Shown: positions 4,318-58,450 of the stretch, in pieces
How the letters are laid out: the number at the start of each line of letters is the position of its first letter
Numbering within the stretch: position 1 is the first letter of the stretch
Origin: Parcubacteria group bacterium
GTDB lineage: Bacteria > Patescibacteriota > Minisyncoccia > Phycocordibacterales > DATDWN01
Length of the DNA stretch: 64,000 nt
Direction: 5' to 3'
NCBI GenBank assembly: GCA_038327915.1
Contig: JBBQLO010000001.1
Span: forward strand, 20,407-84,406
Program-made: the position numbers and the translations under genes
Notes under the pieces: generated by a model
The model's database searches: none
The model's input: the letters and a program-made list of their open reading frames with translations, nothing else
What the model was told of the DNA's origin: nothing

Positions 4318-4485
4318 TGTATTATAAATGTGGTCGTCTTATATCTCGGTTGTGTTACACGACACAGGTAACTACGGAGCGTGTTTATAACACAATCTAC
4401 ACATTATCAGCTTAATTTCTATGTATTGTTTTTGTTTTTAGCCGACAATTACTGCTCACTTATTAAGTATATATTAAATTATCAT

Positions 4486-5352: not shown

Positions 5353-5453
5353 TCAACTAAATAGTGTAGGTCGTTTCTCTTTAGAGAGATACAAAAACAA
5401 ACTGCGCATAATACGCAGCTTGTTTTAATAACATAATTTGTTACTATTTTAGT

Positions 5454-6002: not shown

Positions 6003-6006
6003 TGGC

Positions 6007-7155: not shown

Positions 7156-7271
7156 AATATTGAGTATTGGGGGGTAAGACCTTATTTTTGTATAAAATTA
7201 TTTTGAGTTTTTATAGATTGAAAAACAGTAAAATTTCCCAAATGCTGCCATTTCAGTTATAGTACCAACCT

Positions 7272-9056: not shown

Positions 9057-9059
9057 AAG

Positions 9060-9105
9060 TTATTCTTTCTATATTTTTTAGTTTTTTTTACTGTATAATG
9101 AAATA
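9060..9105 (+). promoter_or_regulatory. extended -10 promoter candidate (TGtATAAT) upstream of the ECF sigma gene
   Basis: 'tttactgtataatg' at 9089-9100 sits about 40 nt upstream of ATG 9143. Confidence 0.35.
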
Positions 9106-9142
9106 TTAGCCGGCGATTACTGTAATAATCTCGATACACCTC

Positions 9143-9736: not shown

Positions 9737-10455
9737 CTCAAGAAAAATTTATAACAAAAGAAGAAAAAATTCAGGAGACGGTTCTCGAAAAGATTCGATG
9801 TAATGAGATAACCATGCGTCCGAAATTTTATCATTTCATGAAAGTCGTGGTATTTATTCTTGTAACTTTTTTAATTTTAGTTATTTCCGTATTTATTTTT
9901 AGTTTTATTCTTTTCAGTATTCGTGCTTCAAGTCAGTTGTTTTTACTCGGATTTGGACTGCGTGGTATCGTTGTGTTTTTTGTGCTTTTTCCGTGGTTTC
10001 TTTGTATTTTGGATATTGTATTGATTTGTGTTCTTGAACTTCTACTCCGACATTTTCGATTTGGTTATAGACGCTCTGCAATCTACCTTCTTGGGGGTAT
10101 TCTCGTGGTCATGATTTCCCTGGGTTTTCTTTTGGAGCGTGTCCGTTTTCATGAAGGATTACTTGATATTTCTGAGCATCATCGTCTTCTTTTTCCCCTT
10201 GGTGAAATGTATGCACATACGCGTGCCCTGCCTGCTCACGAGCAAGGACTCTGTCGGTGCGTTATAACGGCTATTTCGGTGGATTCCCTTATACTCAGAG
10301 ATGATGATTCTTCCTACGGGACCACTACTGAATTTGTTGTGGCGCTGCCACTTTCATTTGTTACAGACACATTTGTGGTAGGTGATCGGGTTTTTGTAGC
10401 AGGTACAGTGATTGACGGAAAAGCTCAAGCATTTGGGATTCAAAAAATGAAATAA
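9733..10455 (+). CDS. putative anti-sigma factor / membrane protein
   Basis: Overlaps the sigma gene by 4 nt (ATGA). Has a cytoplasmic N-terminus, then multiple TM helices, then a C-terminal domain. The call rests on position only. Confidence 0.4.
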   Translation: MTQEKFITKEEKIQETVLEKIRCNEITMRPKFYHFMKVVVFILVTFLILVISVFIFSFILFSIRASSQLFLLGFGLRGIVVFFVLFPWFLCILDIVLICVLELLLRHFRFGYRRSAIYLLGGILVVMISLGFLLERVRFHEGLLDISEHHRLLFPLGEMYAHTRALPAHEQGLCRCVITAISVDSLILRDDDSSYGTTTEFVVALPLSFVTDTFVVGDRVFVAGTVIDGKAQAFGIQKMK

Positions 10456-10532
10456 AAACTCTTTTGTGGGTGTATGAATATGCATAGCAACTGTAATCAT
10501 AGCTGTGTACAAGGAATACACATATAATACAT

Positions 10533-10946
10533 ATGAAAAAAATCATCAGAAAGTCACTTAAGGGGTCACTACGAAGATATGGTAAAATTAAAAATACACT
10601 GTGGGCGAGTGCTCGAGCGGGTTTTGTTACATCCATGATGCTTGTTGGTACTAGTACTGCCTTTGCCCAGCCTTACACTCTATATCGAGGGGGTATGACT
10701 TCATCCCCCCAGTCTGTCTTTGACCAAGCGGACCAAGCGGATTATATTCCTTTTGTTTCCTCAACTGATGCCAAAGTAGACTCAAAGATGCACACAATGC
10801 ACCGCTTTAATTCTCGTTCTCGAGCTAGGGGACTGGCTAAGGGTCTCGGTGTGTCAGAAAGTGACATGAGTCGGGCACTCAGTGCAGGTAAACCAGTCAA
10901 ACAGATGTTAATAGAAAAAGGAATTATGCCGTCGGAATTGAAATAA
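10533..10946 (+). CDS. small secreted protein, hypothetical
   Basis: Basic N-terminus followed by a hydrophobic core ending 'AFAQP', which is signal-peptide-like. 137 aa. Confidence 0.4.
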   Translation: MKKIIRKSLKGSLRRYGKIKNTLWASARAGFVTSMMLVGTSTAFAQPYTLYRGGMTSSPQSVFDQADQADYIPFVSSTDAKVDSKMHTMHRFNSRSRARGLAKGLGVSESDMSRALSAGKPVKQMLIEKGIMPSELK

Positions 10947-10972
10947 AACTAATTTACTTTAAAATTTAATTC

Positions 10973-11527
10973 TTGACTAATGGTATGGAACTAAAAGCAA
11001 AAAAAAATATAGGTATTATTGTTGGATCAATCGTTGTTGTCATGATCTCAGTGGCGGTATACATTTTAGTTAAATCTTCAAAAAAAATGGAAGTAGTGGT
11101 ATTGGATCATATAGATACAACACAGACACAGGCAGGTGTGACAATTAATGCGACAAGTAGTGTTGCAACTACAGAACGTGTCAACTCACACGGATCAATG
11201 ATGGGAAGTGGGGGTGGTATGATGGCACCTACTTATAAAAACGGCACATATACTGCAGTGGGTTCGTACAATTCTCCCGGAGGTTTAGAAAAAATAAAAG
11301 TATCACTCACTCTTCAAAATGACACTGTCGTGGAGGCGATCACTGTTGGTGAAGCGTCTTCTCCAACGTCAAAAGAATATCAGGCACAGTTTATATCAGG
11401 TTTCAGGCCGAGTGTTGTTGGTAAAAATATAACAGCCATTTCTCTTGATGTTGTATCCGGATCTTCACTGACATCTCAAGGCTTTAACGATGCTGTACTA
11501 AAAATTAAGACACAAGCGAAAGGTTAG
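10973..11527 (+). CDS. membrane-anchored FMN-binding domain protein (flavinylation substrate candidate)
   Basis: N-terminal TM anchor. 'YKNGTYTAVGSYNSPGGLEKIKVSLTLQNDTVVEAITV' and 'DVVSGSSLTSQGFNDAV' match the FMN_bind domain pattern, including an [ST]G[AS][ST]-like flavin attachment motif. Confidence 0.55.
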   Translation: MTNGMELKAKKNIGIIVGSIVVVMISVAVYILVKSSKKMEVVVLDHIDTTQTQAGVTINATSSVATTERVNSHGSMMGSGGGMMAPTYKNGTYTAVGSYNSPGGLEKIKVSLTLQNDTVVEAITVGEASSPTSKEYQAQFISGFRPSVVGKNITAISLDVVSGSSLTSQGFNDAVLKIKTQAKG

Positions 11528-11536
11528 AACCGGACT

Positions 11537-12511
11537 ATGCGGTTACCAACTTTTTCATTTGAAGCCATTGGTACGCAGTGGGCAATATACATCGGAGATG
11601 AGGATGGAGAAGTTTCTTCCGATTTAAGTTTAGAATTGTCTGAAAAAATTCAAAAGAGGATCGCTGTATTTGATCTGCACTACTCGCGTTTCAGATCAGA
11701 TTCTCTCGTGTCTGAAATGTCTCGAGTTGCTGGAGTGTATACGTTGCCAGCTGATGCAGAAGCATTGTTTGACGTGTATAAGAAAACATACGACGTGACT
11801 GGGGGTCTTGTCACTCCACTCATCGGTCAGGCTCTCGTTGATCTTGGATACGATGCACAATACTCCCTTGTGCCAAAGACGGTTATCGGAAAAGTACCCC
11901 AATGGAAAGACGTTCTACACTATGATTACCCACTTCTCACTGTGAAGACTCCCGTACTTCTTGATTTTGGGGCTGCGGGTAAGGGCTATTTGATTGACAT
12001 TATAGGGAAGATACTCAAAGATAGCCTGAGAAACAGTAAAGTATTTTCTTTTACCGTCGATGCTGGTGGAGATATTTTGCACGCAAAATGCGAAAAGCAT
12101 ATTACTTCCCCTAGGCAGCGCCTAGGGGTGATGAAAATAGAAAAAAAACTACGAGTTGGACTCGAGAATCCCGAAGACACCACTCAAATAATTGGTGTGG
12201 CAGAAGTTTGCAATGAAAGTATTTGTGGCTCTGCGGGCAATCGTCGCACGTGGCAAAAGTTGGGAAACAAAGGAGAAATAAAAAAACTTACACACATTAT
12301 TCACCCCGAAACGCATTCATCTCCGAAAGGAATATCTGCCATTTGGACTATTGCTTCGACCGCGTGTGTTGCCGACATGCTCGCCACTGCACTTTCTTTT
12401 GTTTCTCCTGAAATACTCAGACCACATTTTTTATTCGAATACCTCATTCTGAACACCGACTACAGTATCAATAAATCAGAGGGTTTTGTGGTTGAATTAT
12501 TTACAGTATAA
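11537..12511 (+). CDS. apbE: FAD:protein FMN transferase, ApbE family
   Basis: ApbE blocks are present: 'AIGTQWAI', 'LLDFGAAGKGYLID', 'FTVDAGGDIL', 'GSAGNRRTW...HIIHPETHSSP' and 'ADMLATALSF'. Confidence 0.75.
   Translation: MRLPTFSFEAIGTQWAIYIGDEDGEVSSDLSLELSEKIQKRIAVFDLHYSRFRSDSLVSEMSRVAGVYTLPADAEALFDVYKKTYDVTGGLVTPLIGQALVDLGYDAQYSLVPKTVIGKVPQWKDVLHYDYPLLTVKTPVLLDFGAAGKGYLIDIIGKILKDSLRNSKVFSFTVDAGGDILHAKCEKHITSPRQRLGVMKIEKKLRVGLENPEDTTQIIGVAEVCNESICGSAGNRRTWQKLGNKGEIKKLTHIIHPETHSSPKGISAIWTIASTACVADMLATALSFVSPEILRPHFLFEYLILNTDYSINKSEGFVVELFTV
12108..12128. repeat. palindrome CCCCTAGGC-AGC-GCCTAGGGG inside apbE coding sequence
   Basis: Perfect 9-bp arms. It shares the core CCTAGGCARCGCCTAGG with the intergenic palindrome at 14541-14573. 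Confidence 0.5.
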
Positions 12512-12569
12512 TGTGATGAGTAATAAAATCTTTTTTGTGAAAAGAAATATTTTTTAATAATAAATTTTT

Positions 12570-14180
12570 ATGGAAAAAATCGATAATTTTTTAAATGACA
12601 TCACTATGTATAGAGTAATGCTTTACGGTCTTTGCATTTTAGCCGTTATTGCGATTATCTTTGGATTTTTGGGGGTTATTTCCTATTCTGGGTTTTCACT
12701 TTTTTTAAGTCTTGTCGTTATTATTTTTGCTTGTTTTACAACAAATCTAATTTTTGCAAAAATATTTCGAGCGCCAACAAACGTTGAGTCGTCGTGGATT
12801 ACTGGTTTTATTTTATTTTTTATACTTTCACCGATCACTATTTCTTCTATCTTTCCCTTTCTTTCTCTTTCCACTTTTTCAAAAATTTTGATATTCATTT
12901 TAGTTGGTACGATAGCAATGGCTTCTAAGTATATTCTCGCCATTGGCAAAAAACATATTTTTAATGCAGTTGCTATATCACTTTTTGTGATTGGTTTATT
13001 TGGTTTAGGCATAGGTATATGGTGGATAGCGAGTCCGGCGATGCTTGGACCAGTCGCTTTTTTGGGTTTTTTTATTTTACGCAAAACTCGTCGCTTCTCG
13101 CTCTTTTTTGCTTTTTTGGTACCGGCATATATTGCTATTTTAGTTTTTGCATTTTTAAATCACGTAGTATTGTCTAGTCTTTTTCTTCAAGTTTTTACTT
13201 CGTGGCCGATTATTTTCTTCGGCACCATTATGCTGACAGAACCACTCACCACTCCTCCATATCTTCGAATGCAGGTTATATACGGAATTTTGGTCGGAGT
13301 TCTTTTTGGCTCACAATTTTCTTTTGGACCAGTTTACTCCACTCCAGAATTTGCTTTGATTGTTGGAAATATTTTTGCTTATATAGTCAGTCCAAAACAA
13401 AAATTGATGTTAGAGCTTACAGAGAAAAAGAAAATTGCTTCAAATATTTTTGAATTTATTTTTACGTCCCCTCAAGTTGCTCTTCGAAAATTTTATTTTA
13501 AACCAGGACAATATTTAGAATGGACACTTGCACACAGTCACCCAGACACTCGTGGTAACAGGCGTTATTTCACTATTGCTTCTTCGCCGACCGAAGACAC
13601 TATTCGCCTCGGCATACGTACTGACCCGCTTGAGTCTAGTTCATTTAAGAAAAAATTAGTGTCGATGAAAAAGGGTGATCTGATAGTAGCATCTCAACTT
13701 GCAGGAGAGTTTACTATGCCGATAGATCATCACATCTCGATGGTTTGGATTGCAGGAGGTATTGGGGTAACACCTTTTCGTAGTATGCTTATGTATTTAT
13801 TGGACAAAAATGCAGAACAGAAAGAGAATAATATAAAGAAAAATAAAAACCAAGAAGAAATACATAACATCACTCTTTTTTATTCCAACAAAACTTTTAT
13901 AGATATTGCATATGCAGACATTCTTGATCGTGCCGAGAGGGAACTAGGAGTGAAAGTTGTGGTAACACTTACCGACATGGCTTCATTGCCCCCAGACTGG
14001 CAGGGCGAAACAGGATTTGTTGATCGAAGAATGATTGCGCGCCACGTCGTCGACCCTACCGTCTGCATGTACTATATTTCCGGTCCACACAACATGGTCA
14101 CTGCATATGAAACTGTACTTGCAGCCATGAATGTACGTTCTTCGCACATAAAGTCTGACTTCTTTCCTGGATTTGCATAA
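12570..14180 (+). CDS. membrane-bound NOX/FNR-like oxidoreductase (polytopic TM domain plus FAD/NAD(P)-binding domain)
   Basis: Roughly 280 aa of TM helices with only 2 His, so not a classical bis-heme ferric reductase domain. The C-terminus carries 'RRYFTIASSP' (the RxYS FAD motif), 'GGIGVTPFRSML' (the NAD(P) GGxGxxP motif) and 'CMYYISGPHNMV'. Confidence 0.65.
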   Translation: MEKIDNFLNDITMYRVMLYGLCILAVIAIIFGFLGVISYSGFSLFLSLVVIIFACFTTNLIFAKIFRAPTNVESSWITGFILFFILSPITISSIFPFLSLSTFSKILIFILVGTIAMASKYILAIGKKHIFNAVAISLFVIGLFGLGIGIWWIASPAMLGPVAFLGFFILRKTRRFSLFFAFLVPAYIAILVFAFLNHVVLSSLFLQVFTSWPIIFFGTIMLTEPLTTPPYLRMQVIYGILVGVLFGSQFSFGPVYSTPEFALIVGNIFAYIVSPKQKLMLELTEKKKIASNIFEFIFTSPQVALRKFYFKPGQYLEWTLAHSHPDTRGNRRYFTIASSPTEDTIRLGIRTDPLESSSFKKKLVSMKKGDLIVASQLAGEFTMPIDHHISMVWIAGGIGVTPFRSMLMYLLDKNAEQKENNIKKNKNQEEIHNITLFYSNKTFIDIAYADILDRAERELGVKVVVTLTDMASLPPDWQGETGFVDRRMIARHVVDPTVCMYYISGPHNMVTAYETVLAAMNVRSSHIKSDFFPGFA

Positions 14181-14221
14181 AAGCTTTGTTTCTAGATCCA
14201 TTTTTGATTTTTGGATAGCAA

Positions 14222-14251
14222 TTGACAAAATACATTTTACTGTTGTAAAAT
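14222..14251 (+). promoter_or_regulatory. sigma-70-like promoter (TTGACA-18-TAAAAT) upstream of small ORF
   Basis: TTGACA at 14222-14227 and TAAAAT at 14246-14251. A strong SD 'AAAGGAG' lies at 14286-14292. Confidence 0.4.
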
Positions 14252-14297
14252 ACAGTGGAAAGCTGAAAACAAGCTAAAGTTTTTAAAAGGAGAAAAT

Positions 14298-14516
14298 ATG
14301 ATCTGTATTAATTTTCGGAGTCACCAAATTACTATTAACGTAGAGGACCTTGATTGTGGGAGTAGACCAGGCAATAGTTCTTCTTTGGTTGTGTCTAAAG
14401 AAGGTCAGGGTCACACCTGCAAATTTGTAGGCATGAACAATACCTACAGTAGTGGAAATTTCGAACTCGAAGGTCAAGCTCTATTTTATCTCATGCAAGC
14501 GATTGTGAATGTATAG
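14298..14516 (+). CDS. small protein (72 aa), hypothetical, with consensus promoter and SD
   Basis: ATG preceded by AAAGGAGAAAAT. No signal peptide or known motif. Followed by a 15-bp palindromic hairpin. Confidence 0.3.
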   Translation: MICINFRSHQITINVEDLDCGSRPGNSSSLVVSKEGQGHTCKFVGMNNTYSSGNFELEGQALFYLMQAIVNV

Positions 14517-14540
14517 TTTGATTGGAAGGACGGGCTAAAT

Positions 14541-14573
14541 CCCTCAGCCCTAGGCAACGCCTAGGGCTGAGGG
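14541..14573. repeat. 15-bp-arm perfect palindrome CCCTCAGCCCTAGGC-AAC-GCCTAGGGCTGAGGG
   Basis: Seen directly in the sequence. No T-run follows on either strand, so it is not a classical terminator. Confidence 0.6.
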
Positions 14574-14658
14574 ACGGATTAATCAAGCGGCGTCACTAAG
14601 ACTCCGAGAAATCGGGGTCGTCTTATATATACAAAATATTTCATGCTACAATTGTCAC

Positions 14659-16362
14659 ATGACTCAAGCCGAAGCACTCGACATATTGAAAATGGGTAAG
14701 AATGTTTTTCTTACTGGGCCAGCTGGTAGTGGAAAGACGTTTGTCTTGAATTCCTATGTTGAGTATCTCAAATCAAACGCGGTGGATGTCGCAGTAACTG
14801 CTTCGACGGGTATTGCAGCGACACACCTGGGAGGTATGACCATACACTCGTGGTCTGGTCTTGGTATACGGAGTACGCTGACGGACTACGATATCGAAGA
14901 CATGATGAGTAAACAATATTTGTACAAACGCTTTGAGCGGACAAAAGTACTCATTATCGACGAAGTTTCTATGCTTCATCACTTTCGTCTCGACTTAATC
15001 GAGTGGATTTGTAGGCAGTTTAAACACAACGACTCGCCTTTTGGTGGTATGCAAATTATACTTTCCGGAGATTTCTTTCAGCTACCGCCGGTGACGCGGG
15101 GTGACGTTTTAGAATCTGAATTTGCTTACAAGGCAGACTCGTGGGCACGCTCTGATTTCACCATCTGTCATCTTTCGGAACAACATCGACAGAAAGACGA
15201 CGTATATCTCGAAATTCTTAACCAGATTCGTCAAAATAATGTGAGTAAAAAAACTCTAGCTCTTTTACAGAGCAGAATAAATCAGGATCCTGAATCCGGA
15301 GCAGAACCGACTAAACTTTTTACACATAATGTAGATGTCGATGTCATCAATCACCGCCATCTCGATCTGATAGAAGGGGATATTAAAAAGTTTATTATGA
15401 CTTCTCGGGGTTCTCCGGGACTTGTTGAGAGTCTTAAAAAAAGTTGTCTTTCTCCGGAAACACTTGTGTTGAAATTGGGCGCACGGGTAATGTTTACTAA
15501 AAATAGCCAGCAGAATCAATATGGCGAAGATTACCAGCACAGCTACGTTAACGGCACACTAGGTGTGGTCAGTGATTTTAATTCATTTGGCGACCCCGTT
15601 ATTCGCACTATTCAAGGAAATACGTTCAGCGTTTCGCCTGCAAGTTGGAAAATAGAAGAGGAGGGAAAAATAAAAGCAGAGATTTCACAGTTACCGCTAC
15701 GTCTTGCGTGGGCCATTACGGTACATAAAAGTCAGGGCATGTCTCTCGATGCTATGGAGGTTGATTTGTCAAAGTCTTTTGTACGGGGGATGGGCTATGT
15801 TGCGCTTTCTCGGGTGCGATCCCTCGGTGGGATGAAACTTCTTGGTTATAATGCAATGGCTTTGCAAGTAGATACCGAAGTTCTTGCACAAGACGCACTT
15901 ATGCGCGACATGTCCGAGGACACTGGAAGTGATTTGAAAGAAATGACTCGCGGGGAAATAACGGCGGTGCAAAATGAGTTTATGAAAAAAATTGAACCGG
16001 ACGAAAAAAAGAAAATAAAAATAAAAGAAGGGAAAATAAAAAAAGAGCAAAATAAATCGACGCATGACATCACGGCTGATTTGCTGGCAGAGAAAATGTC
16101 AATCGGAGAAATGGCTGAGACTCGAAAAATGACACAAGAAACGATAATTTCGCATATCGAAAAACTAATTGAATTAAAAACAAATCCAGACTTTGCATAT
16201 TTACGAGATGAATTAGGGCGTGGAGAATTTAAAGATATGTTAGAAGCCTTTGCCAAAGCTAAGACAAAGACTCTCGCTCCTGTTTATAATATTTTAGACA
16301 AAAATAAAAAAAATCCAAGTTACCTCAAACTTCGACTGGCACGGCTTTTTTTGGAGAAATAA
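14659..16362 (+). CDS. PIF1/RecD-like SF1B 5'-3' DNA helicase with C-terminal HTH-like domain
   Basis: Walker A 'LTGPAGSGKTFVL', motif II 'LIIDEVSM', 'ITVHKSQGMS', and a Lys/Glu-rich linker leading to a C-terminal helical domain. Confidence 0.75.
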   Translation: MTQAEALDILKMGKNVFLTGPAGSGKTFVLNSYVEYLKSNAVDVAVTASTGIAATHLGGMTIHSWSGLGIRSTLTDYDIEDMMSKQYLYKRFERTKVLIIDEVSMLHHFRLDLIEWICRQFKHNDSPFGGMQIILSGDFFQLPPVTRGDVLESEFAYKADSWARSDFTICHLSEQHRQKDDVYLEILNQIRQNNVSKKTLALLQSRINQDPESGAEPTKLFTHNVDVDVINHRHLDLIEGDIKKFIMTSRGSPGLVESLKKSCLSPETLVLKLGARVMFTKNSQQNQYGEDYQHSYVNGTLGVVSDFNSFGDPVIRTIQGNTFSVSPASWKIEEEGKIKAEISQLPLRLAWAITVHKSQGMSLDAMEVDLSKSFVRGMGYVALSRVRSLGGMKLLGYNAMALQVDTEVLAQDALMRDMSEDTGSDLKEMTRGEITAVQNEFMKKIEPDEKKKIKIKEGKIKKEQNKSTHDITADLLAEKMSIGEMAETRKMTQETIISHIEKLIELKTNPDFAYLRDELGRGEFKDMLEAFAKAKTKTLAPVYNILDKNKKNPSYLKLRLARLFLEK

Positions 16363-36223: not shown

Positions 36224-36952
36224 TTATTTCGAGAGTAATGTGTCGATTGTTGACTTGAGAGCCTCATACGACTCTGCACCGACAACTGGTATTTGTGAAC
36301 CGTCTTTTGTGATAAGAACTGAGTATGGTGTTCCTTGGGCGCCCGCTTTCACCGCTTCGTCATAGCTCGCTTGAATTTTAGCTGAATATTTTCCTGAATT
36401 GAGACAGGTTGTGAAATTTTTAGTGTTGATTCCTATTGTTGAAGCAAAGGTTGTGAGTTGCGCGGGGTCGAGACCATTGTTACCCGGAGTCTGGTCGTAA
36501 ATCATGTTGAGATATTGCCAAAATTTAGCCGGACCACCTATTTCATTGACACATTCAGTTGCCTCTGCTTCTTTTGGTGCTTTGGAATGAAGTTGAGCGA
36601 TAGGAAAGTGGCGATATACCCACGCAACTTTACCATCTTTGCCATATTCGGTCATAAGCCGATTGAGCGTTGGGTTAAAAAGTTTGCAGTACGGACATTC
36701 AGTATCAGAATATTCAACAATTACAATATCTGCGTTCGGATTCCCGAGAATATGGTCGCTTGCGGATATAGAAGGAATCTGGTGAGGTGCTGTTGGTGTT
36801 GTTGTAGTTGTGACTGCTTGATTTTTGATTGTTTCTTTTTTTGCATTGAGGTTGGAAAAATATAGTGCACCAGCAATGATACCTCCGGCAACGATGATAG
36901 CAATAGGAATGGCGATTTTGTTTGTGTCCATGGTGTGTATTATACCTTTCAA
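36224..36952 (-). CDS. DsbA-like thiol:disulfide oxidoreductase (thioredoxin fold), membrane anchored
   Basis: N-terminal TM helix and a CxxC active site 'TECPYCKLF'. Confidence 0.7.
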   Translation of the reverse strand: MKGIIHTMDTNKIAIPIAIIVAGGIIAGALYFSNLNAKKETIKNQAVTTTTTPTAPHQIPSISASDHILGNPNADIVIVEYSDTECPYCKLFNPTLNRLMTEYGKDGKVAWVYRHFPIAQLHSKAPKEAEATECVNEIGGPAKFWQYLNMIYDQTPGNNGLDPAQLTTFASTIGINTKNFTTCLNSGKYSAKIQASYDEAVKAGAQGTPYSVLITKDGSQIPVVGAESYEALKSTIDTLLSK

Positions 36953-50681: not shown

Positions 50682-51566
50682 ATGAATCAAAAAAATATGC
50701 AGACATTGCGAGAATATGTGAGAGATGCACAGGAAAAGAAAATAGCCATCGGACATTTCAATATTTCTAATCTTGAGGGACTATGGGGAGTGTTTAAGGC
50801 AGCGCAGAAACTTTCCGTGCCAGTCATTATTGGAGTTTCTGAGGGAGAGCGTGATTTTGTCGGTGTGCGACAAGCCGTAGCACTCGTAAAAAGTCTTCGG
50901 GAGGAATTCGATTATCCTATTTTTCTCAATGCTGACCACACGTATTCGTTTGAGAGAGTGAAGGAAGCAATTGACGTAGGTTTTGACTCGGTTATTTTTG
51001 ATGGTGCACAACTGCCTCTTGAAGAAAATATTAAAATAACTCAACAGTGCGTAGAGTATGCGCGTAATTGTGGGAGAGACGTTTTGGTAGAAGCAGAAAT
51101 GGGTTACATCGGAGTATCTTCAAAAATTCTCGACGATATCCCAGAGGGAGTCAAACTCGATTCTGCTTCTCTTACTGATCCTCTTGTCGCTAAAGAATTT
51201 GTCAAAGCAACTGGTGTTGATATGTTTGCGCCAGCAGTAGGAAACATTCACGGTATGTTTCGTGGGGGAGTGGATCCTGCTCTCAATATTGAAAGAGTAA
51301 AGGAAGTATCTGAATCAACTCGTGTACCACTTGTTCTTCATGGTGGTTCAGGCAACTCCGAAGATGATTTTAAGCAAGCGATAGCAAACGGTGTGACGAT
51401 AGTACACATTAATACCGAAATCCGTATTGCGTATAAACAAGGCTTGATGAAAGGTATTTCCGAAAACCCTGACGAAGTAGCCCCGTACAAATTCCTCCGC
51501 CCCGCTGTACTGTCAGTCCAAGACGTCGTGGAAAAAAAATTGAGATTGTTTAATAATCTATCATAA
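50682..51566 (+). CDS. class II fructose/tagatose-bisphosphate aldolase
   Basis: 'HFNISNLEG', 'LNADHTYS', 'LVLHGGSG' and a length of 294 aa. Confidence 0.8.
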   Translation: MNQKNMQTLREYVRDAQEKKIAIGHFNISNLEGLWGVFKAAQKLSVPVIIGVSEGERDFVGVRQAVALVKSLREEFDYPIFLNADHTYSFERVKEAIDVGFDSVIFDGAQLPLEENIKITQQCVEYARNCGRDVLVEAEMGYIGVSSKILDDIPEGVKLDSASLTDPLVAKEFVKATGVDMFAPAVGNIHGMFRGGVDPALNIERVKEVSESTRVPLVLHGGSGNSEDDFKQAIANGVTIVHINTEIRIAYKQGLMKGISENPDEVAPYKFLRPAVLSVQDVVEKKLRLFNNLS

Positions 51567-51606
51567 AATATACGTGCTATATTATATTTAATATATAAAA
51601 AATAAT

Positions 51607-52575
51607 ATGAAAATTTACATTACACGGAAGATTCCAGAAATAGGAATAAAAATGTTGCAGGACGCTGGCCATGAAGTCGACGTAAACCCTGCGGATCGTA
51701 TTTTAACCAAGCAGGAACTAATGGAAATTCTCAAGGCAAAGCCGTATGACGCAGTCCTGCCTCTTTTAACTGATACTATTAACGCTGAAATATATGATGC
51801 AGTACCCACAGCCAAAATTTTTGCAAACTACGCAGTCGGAACAAACAATATTGATGTCGCTGAAGCTACTAAGCGTGGCATCACTGTAACCAACACACCT
51901 GGCGCCCTTACTAACACAGTTGCTGAACACGCAGTGGCACTACTTTTGGCACTTTCTACTCGTCTTGTAGAAGCAGATGCGTACACACGATCGGGTGCGT
52001 ACAAAGGCTGGGAACCTATGGGTTTTTTGGGAGTAGATCTTGCGGGGAAGACTCTTGGTATCCTCGGAGCGGGTCGAATCGGTTTTCGTGTAGCTCACAT
52101 TCTTGTTCACGGATTTGATATGAAAGTTGCGTATTATGACGTTAAAAATAATTCTGAATTTGAAGCAGACTATAATGCTACTTTTTGTGCGACTCCAGAG
52201 GAATTATTAAAAATATCTGACGTGGTCTCTGTTCACGTGCCACTTTTACCCGAAACTTATCATTTACTGAATGCAGAACGACTGGGTATGATGAAAAAAA
52301 CTGCTTATCTCATTAACACTTCTCGTGGGCCAGTAGTAGATGAGGTCTCACTTGTTGCAGCTCTACAAAATGGAGTGATTGCCGGAGCCGGTCTTGATGT
52401 GTATGAAAATGAGCCGGCACTTGCCCCAGGTCTTGCTGAACTTCCTAATGTAGTCCTTACCCCACACACTGCTTCTGCCACCATGAAGGCTCGCGGGGAG
52501 ATGGCAGAGCTCGCAGCACAAAATATTATTGATTTTTTTGAGGGCAAGGAACCGAAGAATAAAGTTGTAATATAG
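51607..52575 (+). CDS. D-isomer-specific 2-hydroxyacid dehydrogenase (glycerate/hydroxypyruvate reductase-like)
   Basis: NAD-binding 'GILGAGRIGFRVA' and the catalytic region 'NTSRGPVVDE...GAGLDVYENEP...HTASAT'. Confidence 0.8.
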   Translation: MKIYITRKIPEIGIKMLQDAGHEVDVNPADRILTKQELMEILKAKPYDAVLPLLTDTINAEIYDAVPTAKIFANYAVGTNNIDVAEATKRGITVTNTPGALTNTVAEHAVALLLALSTRLVEADAYTRSGAYKGWEPMGFLGVDLAGKTLGILGAGRIGFRVAHILVHGFDMKVAYYDVKNNSEFEADYNATFCATPEELLKISDVVSVHVPLLPETYHLLNAERLGMMKKTAYLINTSRGPVVDEVSLVAALQNGVIAGAGLDVYENEPALAPGLAELPNVVLTPHTASATMKARGEMAELAAQNIIDFFEGKEPKNKVVI

Positions 52576-52593
52576 GATAATTAAGAATAAAAC

Positions 52594-52821
52594 ATGATTA
52601 AATTTGTACACAAAAAACATTTTACCAAAGTAAAAGGTACTGCCAAAATAATTATCACATACAGTGCTTTTGATATTATTCTCGGTATATTTCTTTTGGT
52701 AACCAATATTATTGTCATAATGACACTCTACCACTATCAGAATCCTTCATATAAAAATGGGATGATGAATTCGCAAGTTCCATATCCGTTACGTTTGCAG
52801 ACCTCTCACTCACGTCTATAA
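52594..52821 (+). CDS. small single-TM protein (MIKFVHKKH...), paralog of 54597..54779, pilin-cassette associated
   Basis: 75 aa with one hydrophobic helix. About 60% identical over the first 50 aa to ORF 54597. Confidence 0.45.
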   Translation: MIKFVHKKHFTKVKGTAKIIITYSAFDIILGIFLLVTNIIVIMTLYHYQNPSYKNGMMNSQVPYPLRLQTSHSRL

Positions 52822-52850
52822 TGCATGGTTTTGTCTTTCATAATAAAATA

Positions 52851-53342
52851 ATGCCTCATTATAAAGACAAAGGATTCACCCTTATCGAACTTCTTGTTGT
52901 TATTTCTATTATTGGCTTACTCTCGAGTGTTGTGTTGGCTAGTCTCAATACTGCTCGTGGGAAGGCTCGAGATGCGTCGATTAAGGAAGAAGTACAACAA
53001 GTTACTCGACTTATGGCACTTAATTATAGTGAGACGGGAACATACGTCCAACTCCAAGATTGGACGTGGAAATATACTGTGGCAGATTGCGCAGCGTCCA
53101 CAGTGTCTGGTAATTATGCCAGTCAGTTTATAAATATATGTAAAAGTGTTGTTTTATTGAATGGAGGAGTAGGTGGTTTTTTCAGTGGCAACTCGGTCGA
53201 TGGTAACAATCTTTTTTCTGTTTTTGCGTATTTACCATCCGTAGGTCAGTTCTTTTGTGCTGGTAGTAGTGGTGCAAACTCTGCTGGAACACCGGGAACG
53301 TATTCGTATTGGTCTGGTCCCGGGTGTTATGGTAACCCTTAA
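52851..53342 (+). CDS. type IV pilin-like protein (prepilin)
   Basis: Class III signal 'MPHYKDKG|FTLIELLVVISIIGLLSSVVLASL', with Cys pairs near the C-terminus. Confidence 0.75.
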   Translation: MPHYKDKGFTLIELLVVISIIGLLSSVVLASLNTARGKARDASIKEEVQQVTRLMALNYSETGTYVQLQDWTWKYTVADCAASTVSGNYASQFINICKSVVLLNGGVGGFFSGNSVDGNNLFSVFAYLPSVGQFFCAGSSGANSAGTPGTYSYWSGPGCYGNP

Positions 53343-53422
53343 ACTGGGTGGTGTAAATGAAGTAGCTACTGAGCATCTTACAAAATTGAATGTGATACAA
53401 TGAAGTAAATAAAATTAACACT

Positions 53423-53713
53423 ATGTCCGACGTTCAATTTGATGAAGAAAATGCTCTAGCAAGCTATTCAAACTCTTTTCGTAGAACACAAGAGGAAACA
53501 TTGAGTACACTTCAAAACCTAGTTATTAAGACCGGATTAATTTCAAGCAAAGTTCAAGCCGATTATGTACTCGGTGCCATAGCCCTTATTTGTTTTTTAG
53601 CTACGTGTTTCGTATTTTTTTCCTCTAGTGGTATTTTATCGTCTGGTTCAGTTCCAGTTTCGAAAGAAAAGATGATAGAGGCTTTACATCAATTACCACA
53701 GGGACGCCCATAA
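53423..53713 (+). CDS. small single-TM protein, MSDVQFDE family (copy 1)
   Basis: Conserved N-terminus 'MSDVQFDEEN', one TM helix. Own TTGAAT-18-TAAAAT promoter-like sequence at 53376-53405. Confidence 0.5.
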   Translation: MSDVQFDEENALASYSNSFRRTQEETLSTLQNLVIKTGLISSKVQADYVLGAIALICFLATCFVFFSSSGILSSGSVPVSKEKMIEALHQLPQGRP

Positions 53714-53725
53714 TTTGTCCTTTAT

Positions 53726-54283
53726 ATGTTCAATATACTTAAAAATAAAATAAAGGTTACAAACAAAGGCTTCACACTTATCGAACTTTTAGTCGTCATT
53801 GCCATTATTGGTTTACTGTCGAGTGTTGTTCTTGCAAGTCTCAATACTGCTCGAGGGAAGGCTCGAGATGCCAAAAGGGTTGCCGAGTTATCTTCATTAT
53901 AGAGTGCAATTGAGTTGTACCATGACAGCACTGGTCATTATCCGAATGATGGTGGGGGTGGAACATATGCTGATTGTTGGAAGGTAGGAAGTAATTGGAT
54001 TCCTGATAGCGGTAACTATAACTGGTCGAGTACATATATTCCTAAACAACCACGCGATCCGATCGATACGTGTTGTTGGCCATGGGGTAACTGTGGAAAC
54101 CCCGGAGATGCAGGAACGTACGAATATTGGAGTGATGGCAACAAATATCTCCTTGTCGCCCGCTTGGAAAATACTTCTAGCCCGCTTCGGGCAGAAATAA
54201 CACGGATTATTGACCCAAGGAGTGGTCAACCATACGCTAACAATAATCCACTTGGAAAATATTGTTTTGTTATTAGTAATTAG
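53726..54283 (+). pseudogene. type IV pilin-like gene interrupted by in-frame TAG (53900-53902)
   Basis: 'MFNILKNKIKVTNKG|FTLIELLVVIAIIGLLSSVVLASLNTARGKARDAKRVAELSSL*SAIELYHDSTGHYP...'. The frame stays open and conserved, with 4 Cys, through to 54283. Confidence 0.55.
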
Positions 54284-54314
54284 ATATAATTGTAGTTCAT
54301 TTAAATCAACTTAT

Positions 54315-54500
54315 ATGTCCGACGTTCAATTTGATGAGCAAGATCTCGCTTCATATACTCAACCGAGGAAAATAGGAGAGAAATCTACCTTGGTGAAGTT
54401 TGTGGAGAAAATGGGTGTGCCAGAGGAGTATGTAAATTACGTATTTATTGGAGTAGTATCTGTGTGTATTTTTTTTGCGGTACTCATTGTTATTCGTTAA
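54315..54500 (+). CDS. small single-TM protein, MSDVQFDE family (copy 2, short)
   Basis: 'MSDVQFDEQDLASY...' with a C-terminal TM helix. The 5' nucleotide block is near-identical to copies 1 and 3. Confidence 0.45.
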   Translation: MSDVQFDEQDLASYTQPRKIGEKSTLVKFVEKMGVPEEYVNYVFIGVVSVCIFFAVLIVIR

Positions 54501-54596
54501 TCTAGTCACTCCTCTCCCCAAATTCCCCAATCCATTATGGATGCTATGAAGTCGGGAGGACCTGCACGTTTGAAATAATTTAAAATTTAAAATATT

Positions 54597-54779
54597 ATGA
54601 TAAAATTTATTCACAAAAAGCATCATGACGAGCTAAAAGGAACAGCGAGGATAATTATTACCTATACTCTCACTGACATTATACTGGGATTTTTTCTTTT
54701 ATTTGCCAGTTTTCTTGTTATTGTGACTTTGTATCAGTATCAATCAACCATGTATTCCTCAGGTGTCAAGGGTTCGTAA
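54597..54779 (+). CDS. small single-TM protein (MIKFIHKKH...), paralog of 52594..52821
   Basis: 60 aa, same architecture, located upstream of a pilin gene. Confidence 0.45.
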   Translation: MIKFIHKKHHDELKGTARIIITYTLTDIILGFFLLFASFLVIVTLYQYQSTMYSSGVKGS

Positions 54780-54833
54780 GAACATTTGATGAAAATGAAC
54801 GCACCTCATATGCCCACTTTTTACTAACAGACT

Positions 54834-55355
54834 ATGAATAAAAAAAATTTACATTTACGCAAAGGCTTCACCCTGATCGAACTCCTCGTGGTCATTGCTA
54901 TTATTGGTCTTTTATCGAGCGTTGTATTAGCAAGTTTGAATACTGCTCGGGGGAAGGCGAGGGATGCAATAAGAAAACAAGAAATGCGAGAAATACAAAG
55001 TGCACTCAACCTCTATTATTCTGATTTTGGTTCCTACCCACTTCCAAATCCTGGTTCGTGGGGTGGAATTAGTACAGTACCATGCGGACCAGGAAATGGA
55101 CAAACAGGCGGCGCGAATGCATATATTTTAGGGTTAACTCCAAAATACATGGGCACTCTCCCTGTTGATCCTGGTCCTGCTGGTTCTTGCAATGGTATTA
55201 TGTATGCTTCTGATGGCATAAATTATAAATTATTAGATCATCAGTCGTATGAGGGAACATATCCCACTGCTGGGCAGGAATTTTATGATCCACTTCGAAA
55301 AACATGGTCGATCATGCTTTGTAGTGGAGATTTGACAACGTGTAATACATGGTAA
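54834..55355 (+). CDS. type IV pilin-like protein (prepilin)
   Basis: 'MNKKNLHLRKG|FTLIELLVVIAIIGLLSSVVLASLNTARGKARDA' with Cys pairs in the C-terminal half. Confidence 0.75.
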   Translation: MNKKNLHLRKGFTLIELLVVIAIIGLLSSVVLASLNTARGKARDAIRKQEMREIQSALNLYYSDFGSYPLPNPGSWGGISTVPCGPGNGQTGGANAYILGLTPKYMGTLPVDPGPAGSCNGIMYASDGINYKLLDHQSYEGTYPTAGQEFYDPLRKTWSIMLCSGDLTTCNTW

Positions 55356-55379
55356 TATAATAAATGTAGTTATTTTTAT

Positions 55380-55670
55380 ATGTCCGACGTCCAATTTGAT
55401 GAAGAAAATAGTCTCGCGAGTTATACACGTTCTGCTGTGCGTAAACCTGACGAAGTAGCGGGTGGTTTTGTTATGAAAACTGTGATGAAAACAGGGTTTG
55501 TCAAGACTTCAGCACAAGCGCAATACGTACTTATGGCACTCGCAACGTTATTTTTTCTTACAGCGACGTTTATTATTTTTCACGATTCAGGAGGTAGATT
55601 TTCTTCGAAAGTTGTTCCAAGGGAGACCGTTGATGAAATGATGAAAAAAATTTCTAATCATGGCCAATAA
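55380..55670 (+). CDS. small single-TM protein, MSDVQFDE family (copy 3)
   Basis: 'MSDVQFDEENSLASY...' with a TM helix 'YVLMALATLFFLTATFIIF'. Confidence 0.5.
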   Translation: MSDVQFDEENSLASYTRSAVRKPDEVAGGFVMKTVMKTGFVKTSAQAQYVLMALATLFFLTATFIIFHDSGGRFSSKVVPRETVDEMMKKISNHGQ

Positions 55671-55683
55671 TTCGATATACTTT

Positions 55684-56202
55684 ATGAAAAAATATAATCG
55701 AGGTTTTACTCTTATCGAGCTCTTGGTCGTTATTTCAATTATTGGTTTGTTGTCGAGTGTTGTTCTCGCAAGCTTAAATACTGCGCGATCTAAAGCCCGT
55801 GATGCAAAGACTTTGGAAGATATACACCAGATTACACTTGCACTCCAGTTGGTGCGTTCAAATGATCCAAATTTTCTTTTTCCTGGAAATTCAGGGAGTT
55901 GGCAATGTCTCAAGTCAAGTGGCACATGTTGGGGTGGAGGTTATTCAGCGAACGCGGGAGTTATTACAGCGCTAGCCCCATATATGTCCAATGTTCCGAG
56001 ACCATCACCCCCATCAGGTACAGAAATGTACGATGCATATTTATATTTACCAAATTACACCGCTTATATTGGATCTTCTCCTCCCGGCACATATATTATA
56101 TATGCTCTAGAACGTCCTTTTCCAGGATCATGTAATGGATACTACGCTGGTGCATACGATGTTGGCTATTACTATTGTTACTCTTTTATTGATGGATTGT
56201 AG
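55684..56202 (+). CDS. type IV pilin-like protein (prepilin)
   Basis: 'MKKYNRG|FTLIELLVVISIIGLLSSVVLASLNTARSKARDA' and a Cys-rich C-terminus. The ORF-track start at 55660 overlaps the upstream gene. Confidence 0.7.
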   Translation: MKKYNRGFTLIELLVVISIIGLLSSVVLASLNTARSKARDAKTLEDIHQITLALQLVRSNDPNFLFPGNSGSWQCLKSSGTCWGGGYSANAGVITALAPYMSNVPRPSPPSGTEMYDAYLYLPNYTAYIGSSPPGTYIIYALERPFPGSCNGYYAGAYDVGYYYCYSFIDGL

Positions 56203-56289
56203 TTGTTGCTAGCTAGTTGTAGTTAACAAAAGTTGAGATAAAAACCAAAGGTTGAGACCATTTGCTTGATTCTTATCACTACTTAAGGT

Positions 56290-56961
56290 ATGCTTGCCTA
56301 CATGAATATATTACAAGCACAAGAAAGAAAAGCGGGAGACAATCTTTTTGATCTGCGCAAAAAAGGCGGAATGCCCGCAGTTTTTTACGGTAAAAAAACT
56401 ACTTCTACACCAGTGTCTCTTATTCTCAAGGATTTTATAAAAGTATGGAAAGTGGCTGGTGAGTCTGGTGTGGTAACAATCAAAAGCCCAACTGGCACTG
56501 TCGATGCTCTTATTCACGAAGTCTCTCTTGATCCCGTGACAGATATTCCTCGACATGTTGATTTTTATGTGTTTGAAAAAGGAAAGAAAATCGAAATTTC
56601 TGTACCACTAGAATTCGTAGGCATTTCTCCGGCAGTTAAAGATCTGGGAGGAAGTTTGGTCAAAGTTCTTCATGAGCTTAAAATTTCAGCTGATCCCCAG
56701 AATATTCCTCACGAGATTGCAGTAGACATATCTTCCCTCGTTACATTTGAAAGCCAAATACTTGCTTCGGAGATTGTATTACCCCAGGGAGTTGTTTTGG
56801 AAGAACTGCCGAGTGAAGTGGTGGCTTCAGCTACTCCTCCAAAGGAGGAGGAATTAGAAGAGTCTGCTCCTGTTGATCTTTCTTCTATTGAAGTAGAAAA
56901 GAAGGGCAAGAAGGATGAAGAGGGTGCAGATGCAACTTCTCCGAAGGCAGACGACAAATAA
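56290..56961 (+). CDS. rplY: 50S ribosomal protein L25 / general stress protein Ctc
   Basis: N-terminal L25 domain 'LQAQERKAGDNLFDLRKKGGMPAVFYGK' and a C-terminal acidic extension. Confidence 0.8.
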   Translation: MLAYMNILQAQERKAGDNLFDLRKKGGMPAVFYGKKTTSTPVSLILKDFIKVWKVAGESGVVTIKSPTGTVDALIHEVSLDPVTDIPRHVDFYVFEKGKKIEISVPLEFVGISPAVKDLGGSLVKVLHELKISADPQNIPHEIAVDISSLVTFESQILASEIVLPQGVVLEELPSEVVASATPPKEEELEESAPVDLSSIEVEKKGKKDEEGADATSPKADDK

Positions 56962-57001
56962 ATACTCATACAAAATAGACCCTAAATAAATACGTAAGAC
57001 A

Positions 57002-57043: not shown

Positions 57044-58450
57044 ATGTTTTTTTTATTTTCCAGAAAATACAAACCTATTAAGGATTCAACAGTGGTTTTT
57101 TCTATACTCGTGTACGTGCTTCAATTCGCTTTGTGGGGATTCCCTTCTGTCAGTCTTGCCCTGACTCCGGCTGAACAAAAAGTAGAGTGGGAAGCAGAGC
57201 TTTCTCAAACCGAAGCTGATATTACTAAATGGCAGTCCATTCTCGACCACAGCAAAGCTGGTACTGCATCTCTACAACACGATGCGTCCGTCCTCAATGC
57301 AAAAATCCAACAAGCAAAGCTTTTTATTAAACGTAAAAACATTGCAATTGCCCAGCTTGCGTCAGATATTGCGGACAAAAACACTCATATTACTCAGCTG
57401 GAAAACAGAATACGTACAGGGCATGATTCTCTCGCACAGCTTTTGCGTAAGACCAATGAGATTGACCAGTATAGTTTGCCCGAAGTGGTTCTGGGTGAAC
57501 AAAATTTATCTGATTTTTTTGGAGATATTGAATCGTTTCAATCCGTGAACAAGTCACTCTCTAGTCTTTTCGTAAAGATTAGAGAAACAAAAGATTTGAC
57601 CGTAAAAGAGAAAGTGGCACTTGATGCCCAAAAGACAAAAGAGGCAGACACTCGTGCGGCAGCAGTTGTACAGCAACAGCAAGTCCAAGCTAATGAAAAA
57701 CAAAAAGAATATCTCATTCAGGTAAATAAAACACAAGAGAAGACGTATTCTCAAGTACTGTCTGACCAAAAAGCCAAAGCAGCTAAAATCCGCGCAGCTC
57801 TTTTTGCACTTGCCGGAGGTTCTGCCGCGATTCCTTTTGGGGATGCTTTCAAGTTTGCACAAGAGGCTTCAGTTAAGACAGGTGTCCGTCCGGCATTTCT
57901 TCTCGCTATTTTGACGCAGGAATCTAACCTCGGAAGTAACGTGGGAACGTGCAATAAGCCAGGAGGCCCCAGTTCAAAAGACTGGCACCATATTATGCCA
58001 GGACCGGATCAAATATCCGCGGGACTTTCAAGACGTGACGATCAGTCAGCTTTTGTTCGCATCACTTCTGCTCTTGGACTTAATCCTGATATACAAAGAC
58101 TTTCATGCCCAATGGGTGGAGGTGGGTGGGGAGGAGCTATGGGGCCATCACAATTTATTCCAACTACATGGGAAAATTATCAGAGTAAAATAGCTCGTGC
58201 TGTCGGTAAGTCGGTCGTTAATCCGTGGAATGCCGAGGATGCTTTTATGGCTTCCGCCATCTATCTTTCAGAACTTGGAGCGGGGGGTGGAAATGGAGGG
58301 GGAGGAGGATATACAGCAGAACATACAGCAGCCCTCAAATATTATGCGGGAGGTAACTGGAACAAGCGATCAAATGCATTCTACGGAGATCAAGTCTTAG
58401 CGAAGGCAACATCTATTCAGACAACCATGATTGACCCTCTTAATCTCTAA
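57044..58450 (+). CDS. coiled-coil protein with C-terminal MltB-like (family 3) lytic transglycosylase domain
   Basis: Signal anchor followed by a long heptad-rich region. 'AILTQESNLGSN' and 'GGAMGPSQFIPTTWENY' resemble the Slt35/MltB motifs (ES...G...QFMPxT). Confidence 0.55.
   Translation: MFFLFSRKYKPIKDSTVVFSILVYVLQFALWGFPSVSLALTPAEQKVEWEAELSQTEADITKWQSILDHSKAGTASLQHDASVLNAKIQQAKLFIKRKNIAIAQLASDIADKNTHITQLENRIRTGHDSLAQLLRKTNEIDQYSLPEVVLGEQNLSDFFGDIESFQSVNKSLSSLFVKIRETKDLTVKEKVALDAQKTKEADTRAAAVVQQQQVQANEKQKEYLIQVNKTQEKTYSQVLSDQKAKAAKIRAALFALAGGSAAIPFGDAFKFAQEASVKTGVRPAFLLAILTQESNLGSNVGTCNKPGGPSSKDWHHIMPGPDQISAGLSRRDDQSAFVRITSALGLNPDIQRLSCPMGGGGWGGAMGPSQFIPTTWENYQSKIARAVGKSVVNPWNAEDAFMASAIYLSELGAGGGNGGGGGYTAEHTAALKYYAGGNWNKRSNAFYGDQVLAKATSIQTTMIDPLNL

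Follow-up and report, generated by a model that had tools for sequence, protein, structure and literature searches.

A tandem type IV pilin array in a Parcubacterium, interleaved with a conserved family of small membrane proteins

The Pseudomonadota have pilin accessory proteins (TfpX, TfpY, TfpZ and FimB-like) whose biochemical function is unknown. Each is a membrane protein that is encoded in a two-gene cassette with a particular pilin and co-regulated with it (Qaderi et al. 2025, PMC11841053). The proposal for TfpY-like proteins is that they interact with the pilin and help it to assemble while themselves staying outside the fibre, and that their variable extracytoplasmic part matches the variable pilin head; they are 235-245 aa long, have three N-terminal transmembrane (TM) helices and a periplasmic alpha/beta domain, and their genes lie downstream of the pilin gene, from which an attenuating terminator separates them (PMC11841053). 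Within Patescibacteria, several adjacent pilin genes have been described in TM7x (Saccharibacteria; PMC11623550) and in UBA5633 (Paceibacteria; PMC9763046). Here we describe a 64,000-nucleotide stretch of contig JBBQLO010000001.1 from a Parcubacteria group bacterium (the window; positions are counted from its first letter), in which the region 52594-56202 is a tandem array of four pilin genes interleaved with genes for small membrane proteins that begin with the motif MSDVQFDE, hereafter MSD. What is new in this locus is the MSD family, a probable accessory of the pilus, and a gene-order rule, MSD and then pilin; the pilin array itself is ordinary for Patescibacteria.

The MSDVQFDE proteins are a real, independent and conserved family that occurs widely in the Parcubacteria/Paceibacteria branch of Patescibacteria. 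When MSD1 by itself was the query, a word-indexed search for homologues returned no other protein. An exhaustive HMMER search of 1.84 billion cluster representatives, with a profile built from the three window copies (MSD1-3), matched 216 representatives at E<=1e-3, that is, 213 besides the window sequences; among the 150 matches listed, nearly all are 60-110 aa long and align from residue 1. We define the family by an N-terminal M-[SA]-[DNE]-[VI]-[QE]-F-[DE]-E and a second motif, K-x-G-[LIV]-[VA]-K..Q-A..Y-[VI]-L, that runs into a single TM helix, in a protein of 60-110 aa. The consensus reads MSDVQFDEE, about 20 variable residues, LVkLViKTGLVKdEkQANYVLiGIAvv into the TM helix, and then a variable, often Pro-rich tail or none. 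Phe 6 and the Gly are each conserved in 97% of members, the Ala in 91%, and the Lys and Leu in 84% each. Hydropathy gives one TM helix from near residue 47, with Lys and Arg slightly richer on its N-terminal side (2.5 vs 1.5). The AlphaFold2 (AF2) model of MSD3, built on a 55-sequence alignment and with a predicted local distance difference test score (pLDDT) of 78, opens with a coil (residues 1-7), has two helices (8-19 and 30-37) ahead of a loop that contains the conserved Gly, and continues with a TM helix (44-69) and a tail helix (81-94). Naturally tail-less members exist, and the subfamily of MSD2 has relatives in P0009, P0078, P0097, P0098 and P0130, and also in L026.

The first-pass annotation of this DNA had taken the MSDVQFDE reading frames for independent proteins, not fragments of pilin genes, and had recognised no named counterpart. 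Both claims hold: the family comprises at least 216 clusters with a signature of its own, and no library names it. Searches of Pfam, NCBIfam, PHROG, PDB sequence profiles and, with the AF2 model, Foldseek found no relative and only scattered matches due to TM bias. In the source records, which come from Candidatus Taylorbacteria, Paceibacterota, Nomurabacteria and Patescibacteria UBA2103, the proteins are called 'hypothetical protein'; the one automatic JGI label, YneF/UPF0154 on a single member, was unsupported by a Pfam scan of 139 members and was set aside. Those parts of the literature on Patescibacterial pili that a few search terms returned make no mention of an MSD-like protein.

Within the window, as an earlier estimate of about 26 nt had indicated, the MSD genes hardly differ over their first 23-29 nt; the longest exact runs there are 23, 18 and 11 nt. 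The suggestion that this reflects a constraint on the nucleotides did not hold up: the first eight residues are encoded by synonymous codons that differ freely from one family member to another, and we therefore ascribe the likeness to protein-level constraint and shared ancestry. An RNA element or downstream box at the MSD 5′ end was considered and rejected, the codons varying as they do and Rfam finding nothing in 51500-57000; a tRNA scan was likewise empty inside the array.

Linkage of MSD to pilins is strong. In part with a 22-sequence subset of the alignment, we located 30 further loci with MSD members (L002-L031) and fetched 184 kb of DNA. A prepilin motif follows within 450 nt, on the same strand, in 18 of the 30 distinct external MSD genes that have enough downstream DNA (binomial P~3e-20, the background having been set at 0.03 per 450-nt stretch, a purposely generous value). 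In two more loci the motif lies slightly beyond that distance (L007, past a truncated MSD paralogue, and L030), and 19-20 of the 25 pilin motifs in the 184 kb sit right behind an MSD gene. External MSD-to-pilin gaps are typically 3-20 nt, with 4-nt overlaps in L023 and L027. The conserved unit is MSD then pilin, and not pilin then MSD, as the first-pass annotation had drawn it when it paired the pilins, in all but one case, with the MSDVQFDE protein that follows. Spacing in the window agrees with the order seen elsewhere: 12-13 nt (or, for pilin 4, an 11-nt overlap) separate an MSD gene from the next pilin, and 24-80 nt a pilin from the next MSD gene, so that here too the unit runs MSD, then pilin. 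The pairs in the array are MIKF1 with pilin 1 (MIKF denoting a second kind of small gene, considered below), MSD1 with pilin 2, MSD2 (together with MIKF2 and a relic of a fourth MSD gene) with pilin 3, and MSD3 with pilin 4. Two pilins have alternative starts that overlap the preceding small gene, a TAATG at the MIKF1/pilin 1 junction (52819-52823) and, for pilin 4, an ATG 11 nt before the MSD3 stop (55660-55670); both starts of each yield plausible leader peptides. One external contig (L027, strand -, 7829-8264) has an 81-aa MSD-family gene downstream of a pilin, the order being reversed, along with two normal MSD-pilin units.

Adjacency of MSD and pilin recurs in at least five unrelated genomic contexts. 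One is the interval between aldolase and L25 genes in which the window array lies, occupied by MSD-pilin units in L020, L023, L025 and L027 as well; others are the intervals from DnaE to RNase HII (L006) and from a glycosyltransferase to FtsW (L028), and the neighbourhood of RbfA (L026). In L029, L030 and L031 the pair is part of a complete pilus operon, with the order PilM, PilN-like, PilO, PilB, response regulator, PilT, PilC, MSD, pilin, pilin, PilD and further pilins, and relatives with MSD-pilin modules encode PilB, PilC, PilD, PilM, PilO and PilT. In the L031 operon PilM matches at E 4.6e-33 and PilO at E 7.6e-7, and a 223-aa protein matches PilN weakly (E 0.0026). That operon, complete at 1912-15418, also encodes 143-aa and 177-aa unannotated proteins (weakly YldA-like and PilX_N) and a 240-aa protein with a sub-threshold N_methyl motif. 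The search of other Patescibacteria for linkage, on which the proposed partnership of MSD and pilin depended, thus found conservation and strong synteny, and the hypothesis survived it.

Expression signals were sought in the array and across the family. The one site matching the sigma-70 consensus perfectly (Table 1) ends 18 nt before the MSD3 ATG. MSD1 (TTGAAT-18-TAAAAT, 53386-53415) and MIKF2 have weaker promoter-like sites in front of them; the total of such sites in the array region is not above that in shuffles, and the MSD3 site alone is noteworthy. We found no + strand terminator within the array. Among 27 MSD genes, 10 have a good -10 hexamer ending 4-10 nt before the ATG, against 4.0+-1.8 in shuffles, a pattern that suggests leaderless or very short-leader MSD-pilin transcripts. 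Boxes of this kind close to the MSD ATG are found in L010, L015, L017, L019, L025 and L028.

On balance we favour the view that the array arose through tandem expansion, by birth and death, of a type IV pilus module of two genes, with MSD as a pilin accessory factor. Each module would consist of a small bitopic MSD protein as first cistron, followed by its pilin. The two would share a transcript, which in many cases would begin at a promoter next to the MSD start, and their translation would be coupled; this coupling would place them in the membrane together, in the same N-in/C-out topology. The variable, Pro-rich extracytoplasmic tail of MSD may then contact the pilin head, which is variable too, and the invariant N-terminal peptide on the cytoplasmic side may dock on a conserved cytoplasmic or membrane component of the pilus machine; MSD would thereby hold or deliver the pilin for assembly. 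What we infer here is thus co-translation, topology, pilin contact and the accessory role itself, starting from the linkage, operon membership, conservation and single-TM architecture observed above. A fit with tail-to-head and peptide-to-machine contacts comes from the distribution of tails: MSD proteins with an extracytoplasmic tail of at least 12 aa are pilin-adjacent in 18 of 21 cases and tail-less ones (about 60-70 aa) in two of eight (Fisher P=0.004, in a small, phylogenetically uncorrected test of 29 genes from loci L002-L030). MSD2, the window copy that has lost its tail, is the copy that no longer abuts a pilin.

Several points weigh against this view, the size and uncorrected phylogeny of the tail test being one, and the phylogenetic dependence of the sampled loci in general another. 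Roughly a third of the MSD genes lack a pilin next to them (L002, L008, L009, L012, L015, L016, L019, L021), so MSD can exist, and perhaps act, without a neighbouring pilin; conversely, the later pilins of the pilus operons have no MSD of their own. The membrane helix of the pilins is nearly invariant and the TM segments of MSD vary, which fits poorly with a paralogue-specific pairing of TM helices, and the topology assigned to MSD derives from the weak positive-inside bias given above. A bolder form of the idea, which we put forward tentatively as a possibility to be kept in view, is that MSD is a lineage-wide Parcubacterial pilus component, a pilin-specific adaptor whose tail selects one pilin paralogue and whose N-terminal peptide plugs that pilin into the PilC/PilB/PilM machine. 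If so, gain and loss of MSD-pilin modules, of which the four-unit array with its decaying copies would be an example, would let episymbionts change the pilus that they display, and perhaps the hosts that they bind.

The MSD genes that stand apart from pilins raise the question of whether MSD might instead be a general Parcubacterial membrane protein, of a housekeeping or regulatory kind (say, one that is anchored in the membrane and regulates pilin expression, or the product of a translated leader cistron), that adjoins pilins because of shared expression needs. The eight loci with MSD and no adjacent pilin lie by DnaE/RNase HII, FtsW or L25, the module is set among highly expressed housekeeping genes, and MSD, as a first cistron that often abuts a promoter, controls access to the pilin cistron. 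We nevertheless think this rather unlikely. Adjacency is kept in the unrelated contexts listed above and inside the pilus operon; a TM helix and two motifs conserved over 216 clusters are more than a translated leader calls for; and the copies that lack a pilin are mostly tail-less short forms, those of the DnaE locus (L008, L009) looking like recent pilin loss relative to L006.

The conserved Gly of the second MSD motif invites another explanation, namely that MSD is a substrate of prepilin peptidase, cut after this residue (K-T-G/L-V-K-D-E) to give a minimal Flp-like pilin or pseudopilin that primes, or co-polymerises with, the downstream pilin. The Lys found at -2 in 84% of members, the hydrophobic residue at +1 and the Glu at +5 in 43% echo the type IV prepilin rule of Gly at -1, hydrophobic +1 and Glu +5; the mature part is predicted to be about 50 aa and mostly one helix, and the gene is placed among pilins, between PilC and PilD. 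Against this, the stretch from +3 to +9 (K-D-E-K-Q-A-N) consists of charged or polar residues and the hydrophobic helix does not begin until +10, against +1 in known class III signal peptides; the window copies have no Glu at +5 (Ser in MSD1 and MSD3, Tyr in MSD2); the segment discarded as a leader would be the best-conserved one; and the AF2 model puts the Gly in a loop between two helices and not at the start of a membrane-abutting helix. Scans of the family gave no N_methyl or Flp match, and DUF4244 weakly in one of 139 members. We judge cleavage of this kind improbable.

PilN offers a further comparison, since it and MSD both span the inner membrane once, both begin with a short and highly conserved peptide on the cytoplasmic side (a predicted coil in MSD) and both are encoded in pilus operons. 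MSD could on this basis be a minimal PilN analogue whose N-terminal peptide binds PilM and tethers it to the membrane, and those parts of a published survey of Paceibacteria pilus genes that list them name only pilBCDMT (PMC9763046). The MSD-containing operon, however, already encodes PilM, a PilN-like protein and PilO, that is, an alignment complex. PilN is about 200 aa long, with a periplasmic coiled coil and a ferredoxin-like domain, and its motif is INLLP, unlike the acidic MSDVQFDE; the MSD model has no extracytoplasmic domain, and the PilN domain PF05137 gave no consistent match in the family. Several MSD paralogues per genome, each by a pilin, are also not what one expects of a machine subunit, and we consider this explanation very improbable.

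The features of the array are collected in Table 1. All are on the + strand, and every one of the nine open reading frames, and both motifs, that the first-pass annotation listed are present. All four prepilins, with near-identical N-termini, also stand where it had placed them, apart from the alternative starts of pilins 1 and 4.

Table 1. Features of the array in window coordinates, in gene order. The profile E-values of MSD1-3 are not independent, as the profile was built from these sequences; independent support for the family is the signature common to the 213 others.
Feature	Position	Strand	Description
MIKF1	52594..52821	+	75 aa, single-TM orphan reading frame, directly 5′ of pilin 1
Pilin 1	52821 or 52851..53342	+	prepilin, 4 Cys; N_methyl E 1.4e-8, TIGR02532
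MSD1	53423..53713	+	96 aa with tail; 12 nt 5′ of pilin 2; profile E 2e-44
Pilin 2	53726..54283	+	prepilin with in-frame TAG at 53900-53902
MSD2	54315..54500, former tail readable to 54578	+	61 aa, 'GVPEEYV' subfamily; profile E 1.3e-20
MIKF2	54597..54779	+	60-aa paralogue of MIKF1, between MSD2 and pilin 3
Fourth-MSD relic	~54770..54832	+	5′ ~20 codons (GFVRTFDENERTSYAHF), start codon lost, abuts pilin 3
Pilin 3	54834..55355	+	intact prepilin, 4 Cys; N_methyl, weak T2SSG, GspG-like N-terminus
Sigma-70 promoter	55332..55361	+	TTGACA-18-TATAAT, 12/12 consensus match; -35 box inside the end of pilin 3
MSD3	55380..55670	+	96 aa with tail; directly 5′ of, or overlapping, pilin 4; profile E 6.7e-45
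Pilin 4	55660 or 55684..56202	+	intact prepilin, 4 Cys; N_methyl E 4.4e-9

The four pilins share the N-terminal block GFTLIELLVVI[AS]IIGLLSSVVLASLNTAR[GS]KARDA, 34 consecutive positions of which two are variable (A/S and G/S), and beyond it their sequences diverge completely. No other pilin N-terminal motif occurs in the 64 kb. Each protein carries a class III signal peptide, ...[KR]G/FTLIELLVVI..., and matches N_methyl above cut-off (E 4e-9 to 3.5e-8); TIGR02532 is above cut-off in pilins 1, 3 and 4, the three intact pilins that were scanned, and the N-termini, that of pilin 3 included, match solved PDB pilins. The C-terminal halves have at least four Cys each and weak matches to T2SSG, as judged from sequence. 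In the N-terminal block, nonsynonymous divergence (dN) is 0.04-0.10 and synonymous divergence (dS) runs from 0.64 to saturated, with DNA identity of 70-81% and exact runs of 9-17 nt. The idea, raised when the array was first annotated, that it is a pilin antigenic or phase-variation locus in which conserved 5′ blocks recombine and shuffle variable 3′ cassettes draws on the identical N-terminal protein block and unrelated C-terminal halves of four tandem pilins and on a pilin 2 that, with its nonsense codon, could in principle be a silent donor, and it is scarcely credible once the copies are aligned as nucleotides and amino acids: each has a start codon, leader and full N-terminus with no 5′-truncated silent cassette among them, the low dN, high dS and short exact runs mark old paralogues under protein-level selection and not gene-converted ones, the 3′ halves have no repeats in common, and relatives with zero to two units at the same locus fit duplication and loss.

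The array is partly decaying, as the stop codons in pilin 2 and MSD2 and the relic of a fourth MSD copy attest. Beyond its TAG the pilin 2 frame stays open for 126 further codons (chance P~2e-4), which argues that the mutation is recent; pilin 2 is probably a recent pseudogene or a strain polymorphism. MSD2, which had been counted among reading frames of intact length, stops after 61 aa at an in-frame TAA (54498-54500); for 25 codons beyond it, the same frame can still be aligned with the tails of MSD1 and MSD3. Recoding of these stops was rejected, since both TAG and TAA serve as normal terminators in the window, where the long open reading frames end in TAA 34 times, TAG six times and TGA twice. 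An independent Logan assembly, SRR19962015, is identical base for base over 53074-55509, both stops included. The two stops look like recent inactivating or truncating mutations, or like polymorphisms caught in the consensus. The matching Logan contig breaks inside pilin 1 (53074) and inside MSD3 (55509), and these may be repeat-induced assembly breaks or strain variation. As for the relic, the pattern FDE.{3,5}SY, sought in all six frames of the window, occurs in the three MSD genes and in GFVRTFDENERTSYAHF only, with 0.1 occurrences expected. The relic overlaps MIKF2 at the 3′ end of that gene. A weaker DNA resemblance is seen in the corresponding stretch behind MIKF1 (alignment A9) and suggests that the MIKF-relic junction is older than the MIKF duplication.

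The two MIKF proteins were introduced in the first-pass annotation as the second of two conserved families; conservation holds for MSD. MIKF turned up in this genome alone, and a relationship with MSD could not be demonstrated. MIKF1 and MIKF2 are 58% identical, and their other frames contain stop codons. Since their dN is 0.34 with saturated dS, we regard both as coding genes on which purifying selection acts. A search at word-index sensitivity brought up no relatives from other genomes, Pfam, NCBIfam and PHROG gave no match, and comparison with MSD gave no significant similarity (hhalign probability 19%, hmmsearch 4 bits). We take the MIKF reading frames to be lineage-specific additions to the array. 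In two external loci an N-terminally truncated MSD paralogue directly follows an MSD gene (L002b, at 6207-6377 of L002, E 2e-16; L007b, at 645-902 of L007, E 1e-12); both keep the K-x-G...Q-A..VL motif and the TM helix and lack the MSDVQFDE peptide, and L007b stands between MSD and pilin, the position of MIKF2 in the window. By this positional analogy it is possible, though unproven, that the MIKF proteins are very diverged, N-terminally truncated copies of MSD.

The flanks of the array allow its history to be followed. In the window it lies in the order transketolase, PfkB (- strand), class II aldolase, 2-hydroxyacid dehydrogenase, array, L25, SLT-like protein, L31, RF1 and S2, and the same flank order recurs in a complete genome, CP174360.1 (UBA2103), and in several metagenome contigs. 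The orthologous slot holds a lone MSD gene in L016, L021 and L022, one MSD-pilin unit in L020, L023 and L024, and two in L025 and L027, so that copy number at this locus is zero, one, two or, in the window, four units. Because orthologous loci hold zero, one or two, the comparison of these sequences indicates that the window's four units are a local expansion. Its units are old, since MSD2 belongs to a distinct subfamily seen elsewhere and pilin dS runs from 0.64 to saturated. Always after L25, by the MSD-pilin slot, is a gene for a protein of about 460 aa with a weak SLT_2 lytic-transglycosylase domain (57044-58450; orthologues in L020, L021, L025 and L027), and this cell-wall-cutting enzyme could be functionally linked to the adjoining pilin module.

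Elsewhere in the 64-kb window we found no pilus machine gene and no prepilin peptidase; the neighbours are housekeeping genes. A DsbA-like reading frame at 36224-36952, earlier named as available to oxidise the pilin Cys pairs, is confirmed as a gene (Thioredoxin_4/DSBA), and its link to the pilins, 16 kb away, is conjecture. At 9143-10455 a gene for an extracytoplasmic function (ECF)-type sigma factor (Sigma70_r2/r4_2) is followed, with a 4-nt overlap, by one for a 240-aa protein outside any Pfam family, and the second could be the anti-sigma factor of the first.

Type IV pili are the best-supported organelle of attachment and host interaction in Patescibacteria, and their machinery has been annotated by homology to model bacteria only. 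MSD is a concrete candidate for a pilus component in a lineage whose small proteins are routinely ignored, and its signature, together with the gene-order rule, could improve the annotation of thousands of metagenome-assembled genomes. The result also removes an unsupported reading of tandem pilin arrays as recombinational variation loci.

Among known systems, Flp/Tad pilins have a leader Gly followed by XXXXEY that runs directly into the hydrophobic core, a pattern that MSD does not have. The pilE/pilS system of Neisseria resembles the window in its multiple tandem pilin-related sequences with variable C-terminal coding parts. Its pilS copies are promoterless, lack the 5′ conserved region and recombine via long identical tracts, whereas the window holds complete genes whose 5′ blocks have diverged at synonymous sites, with neither silent 5′-truncated donors nor long identical flanking tracts. 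MSD is in our view probably a new pilus accessory factor and not part of a pilin-shuffling system. The TM7x and UBA5633 loci, so far as the pilin sections of the two papers describe them, share with the window adjacent pilin genes, conserved N-terminal helices and divergent C-terminal domains, and the passages there on pilin, operon, accessory and transmembrane mention no small membrane protein encoded before the pilins (PMC11623550, PMC9763046). The nearest concept to MSD is the pilin/accessory-gene cassette of TfpY and FimB-like proteins. Neither the structure nor the gene order of those proteins was found in MSD, nor, as noted, a + strand terminator in the array, and we detected no relationship in sequence or fold between MSD and TfpY. 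MSD proteins are nearly all 60-110 aa long (61-96 in the window), have one TM helix and a tail of at most about 30 aa, are encoded upstream, as the first cistron, and belong to Patescibacteria; they are analogous, not homologous, to the TfpY/FimB-like proteins.

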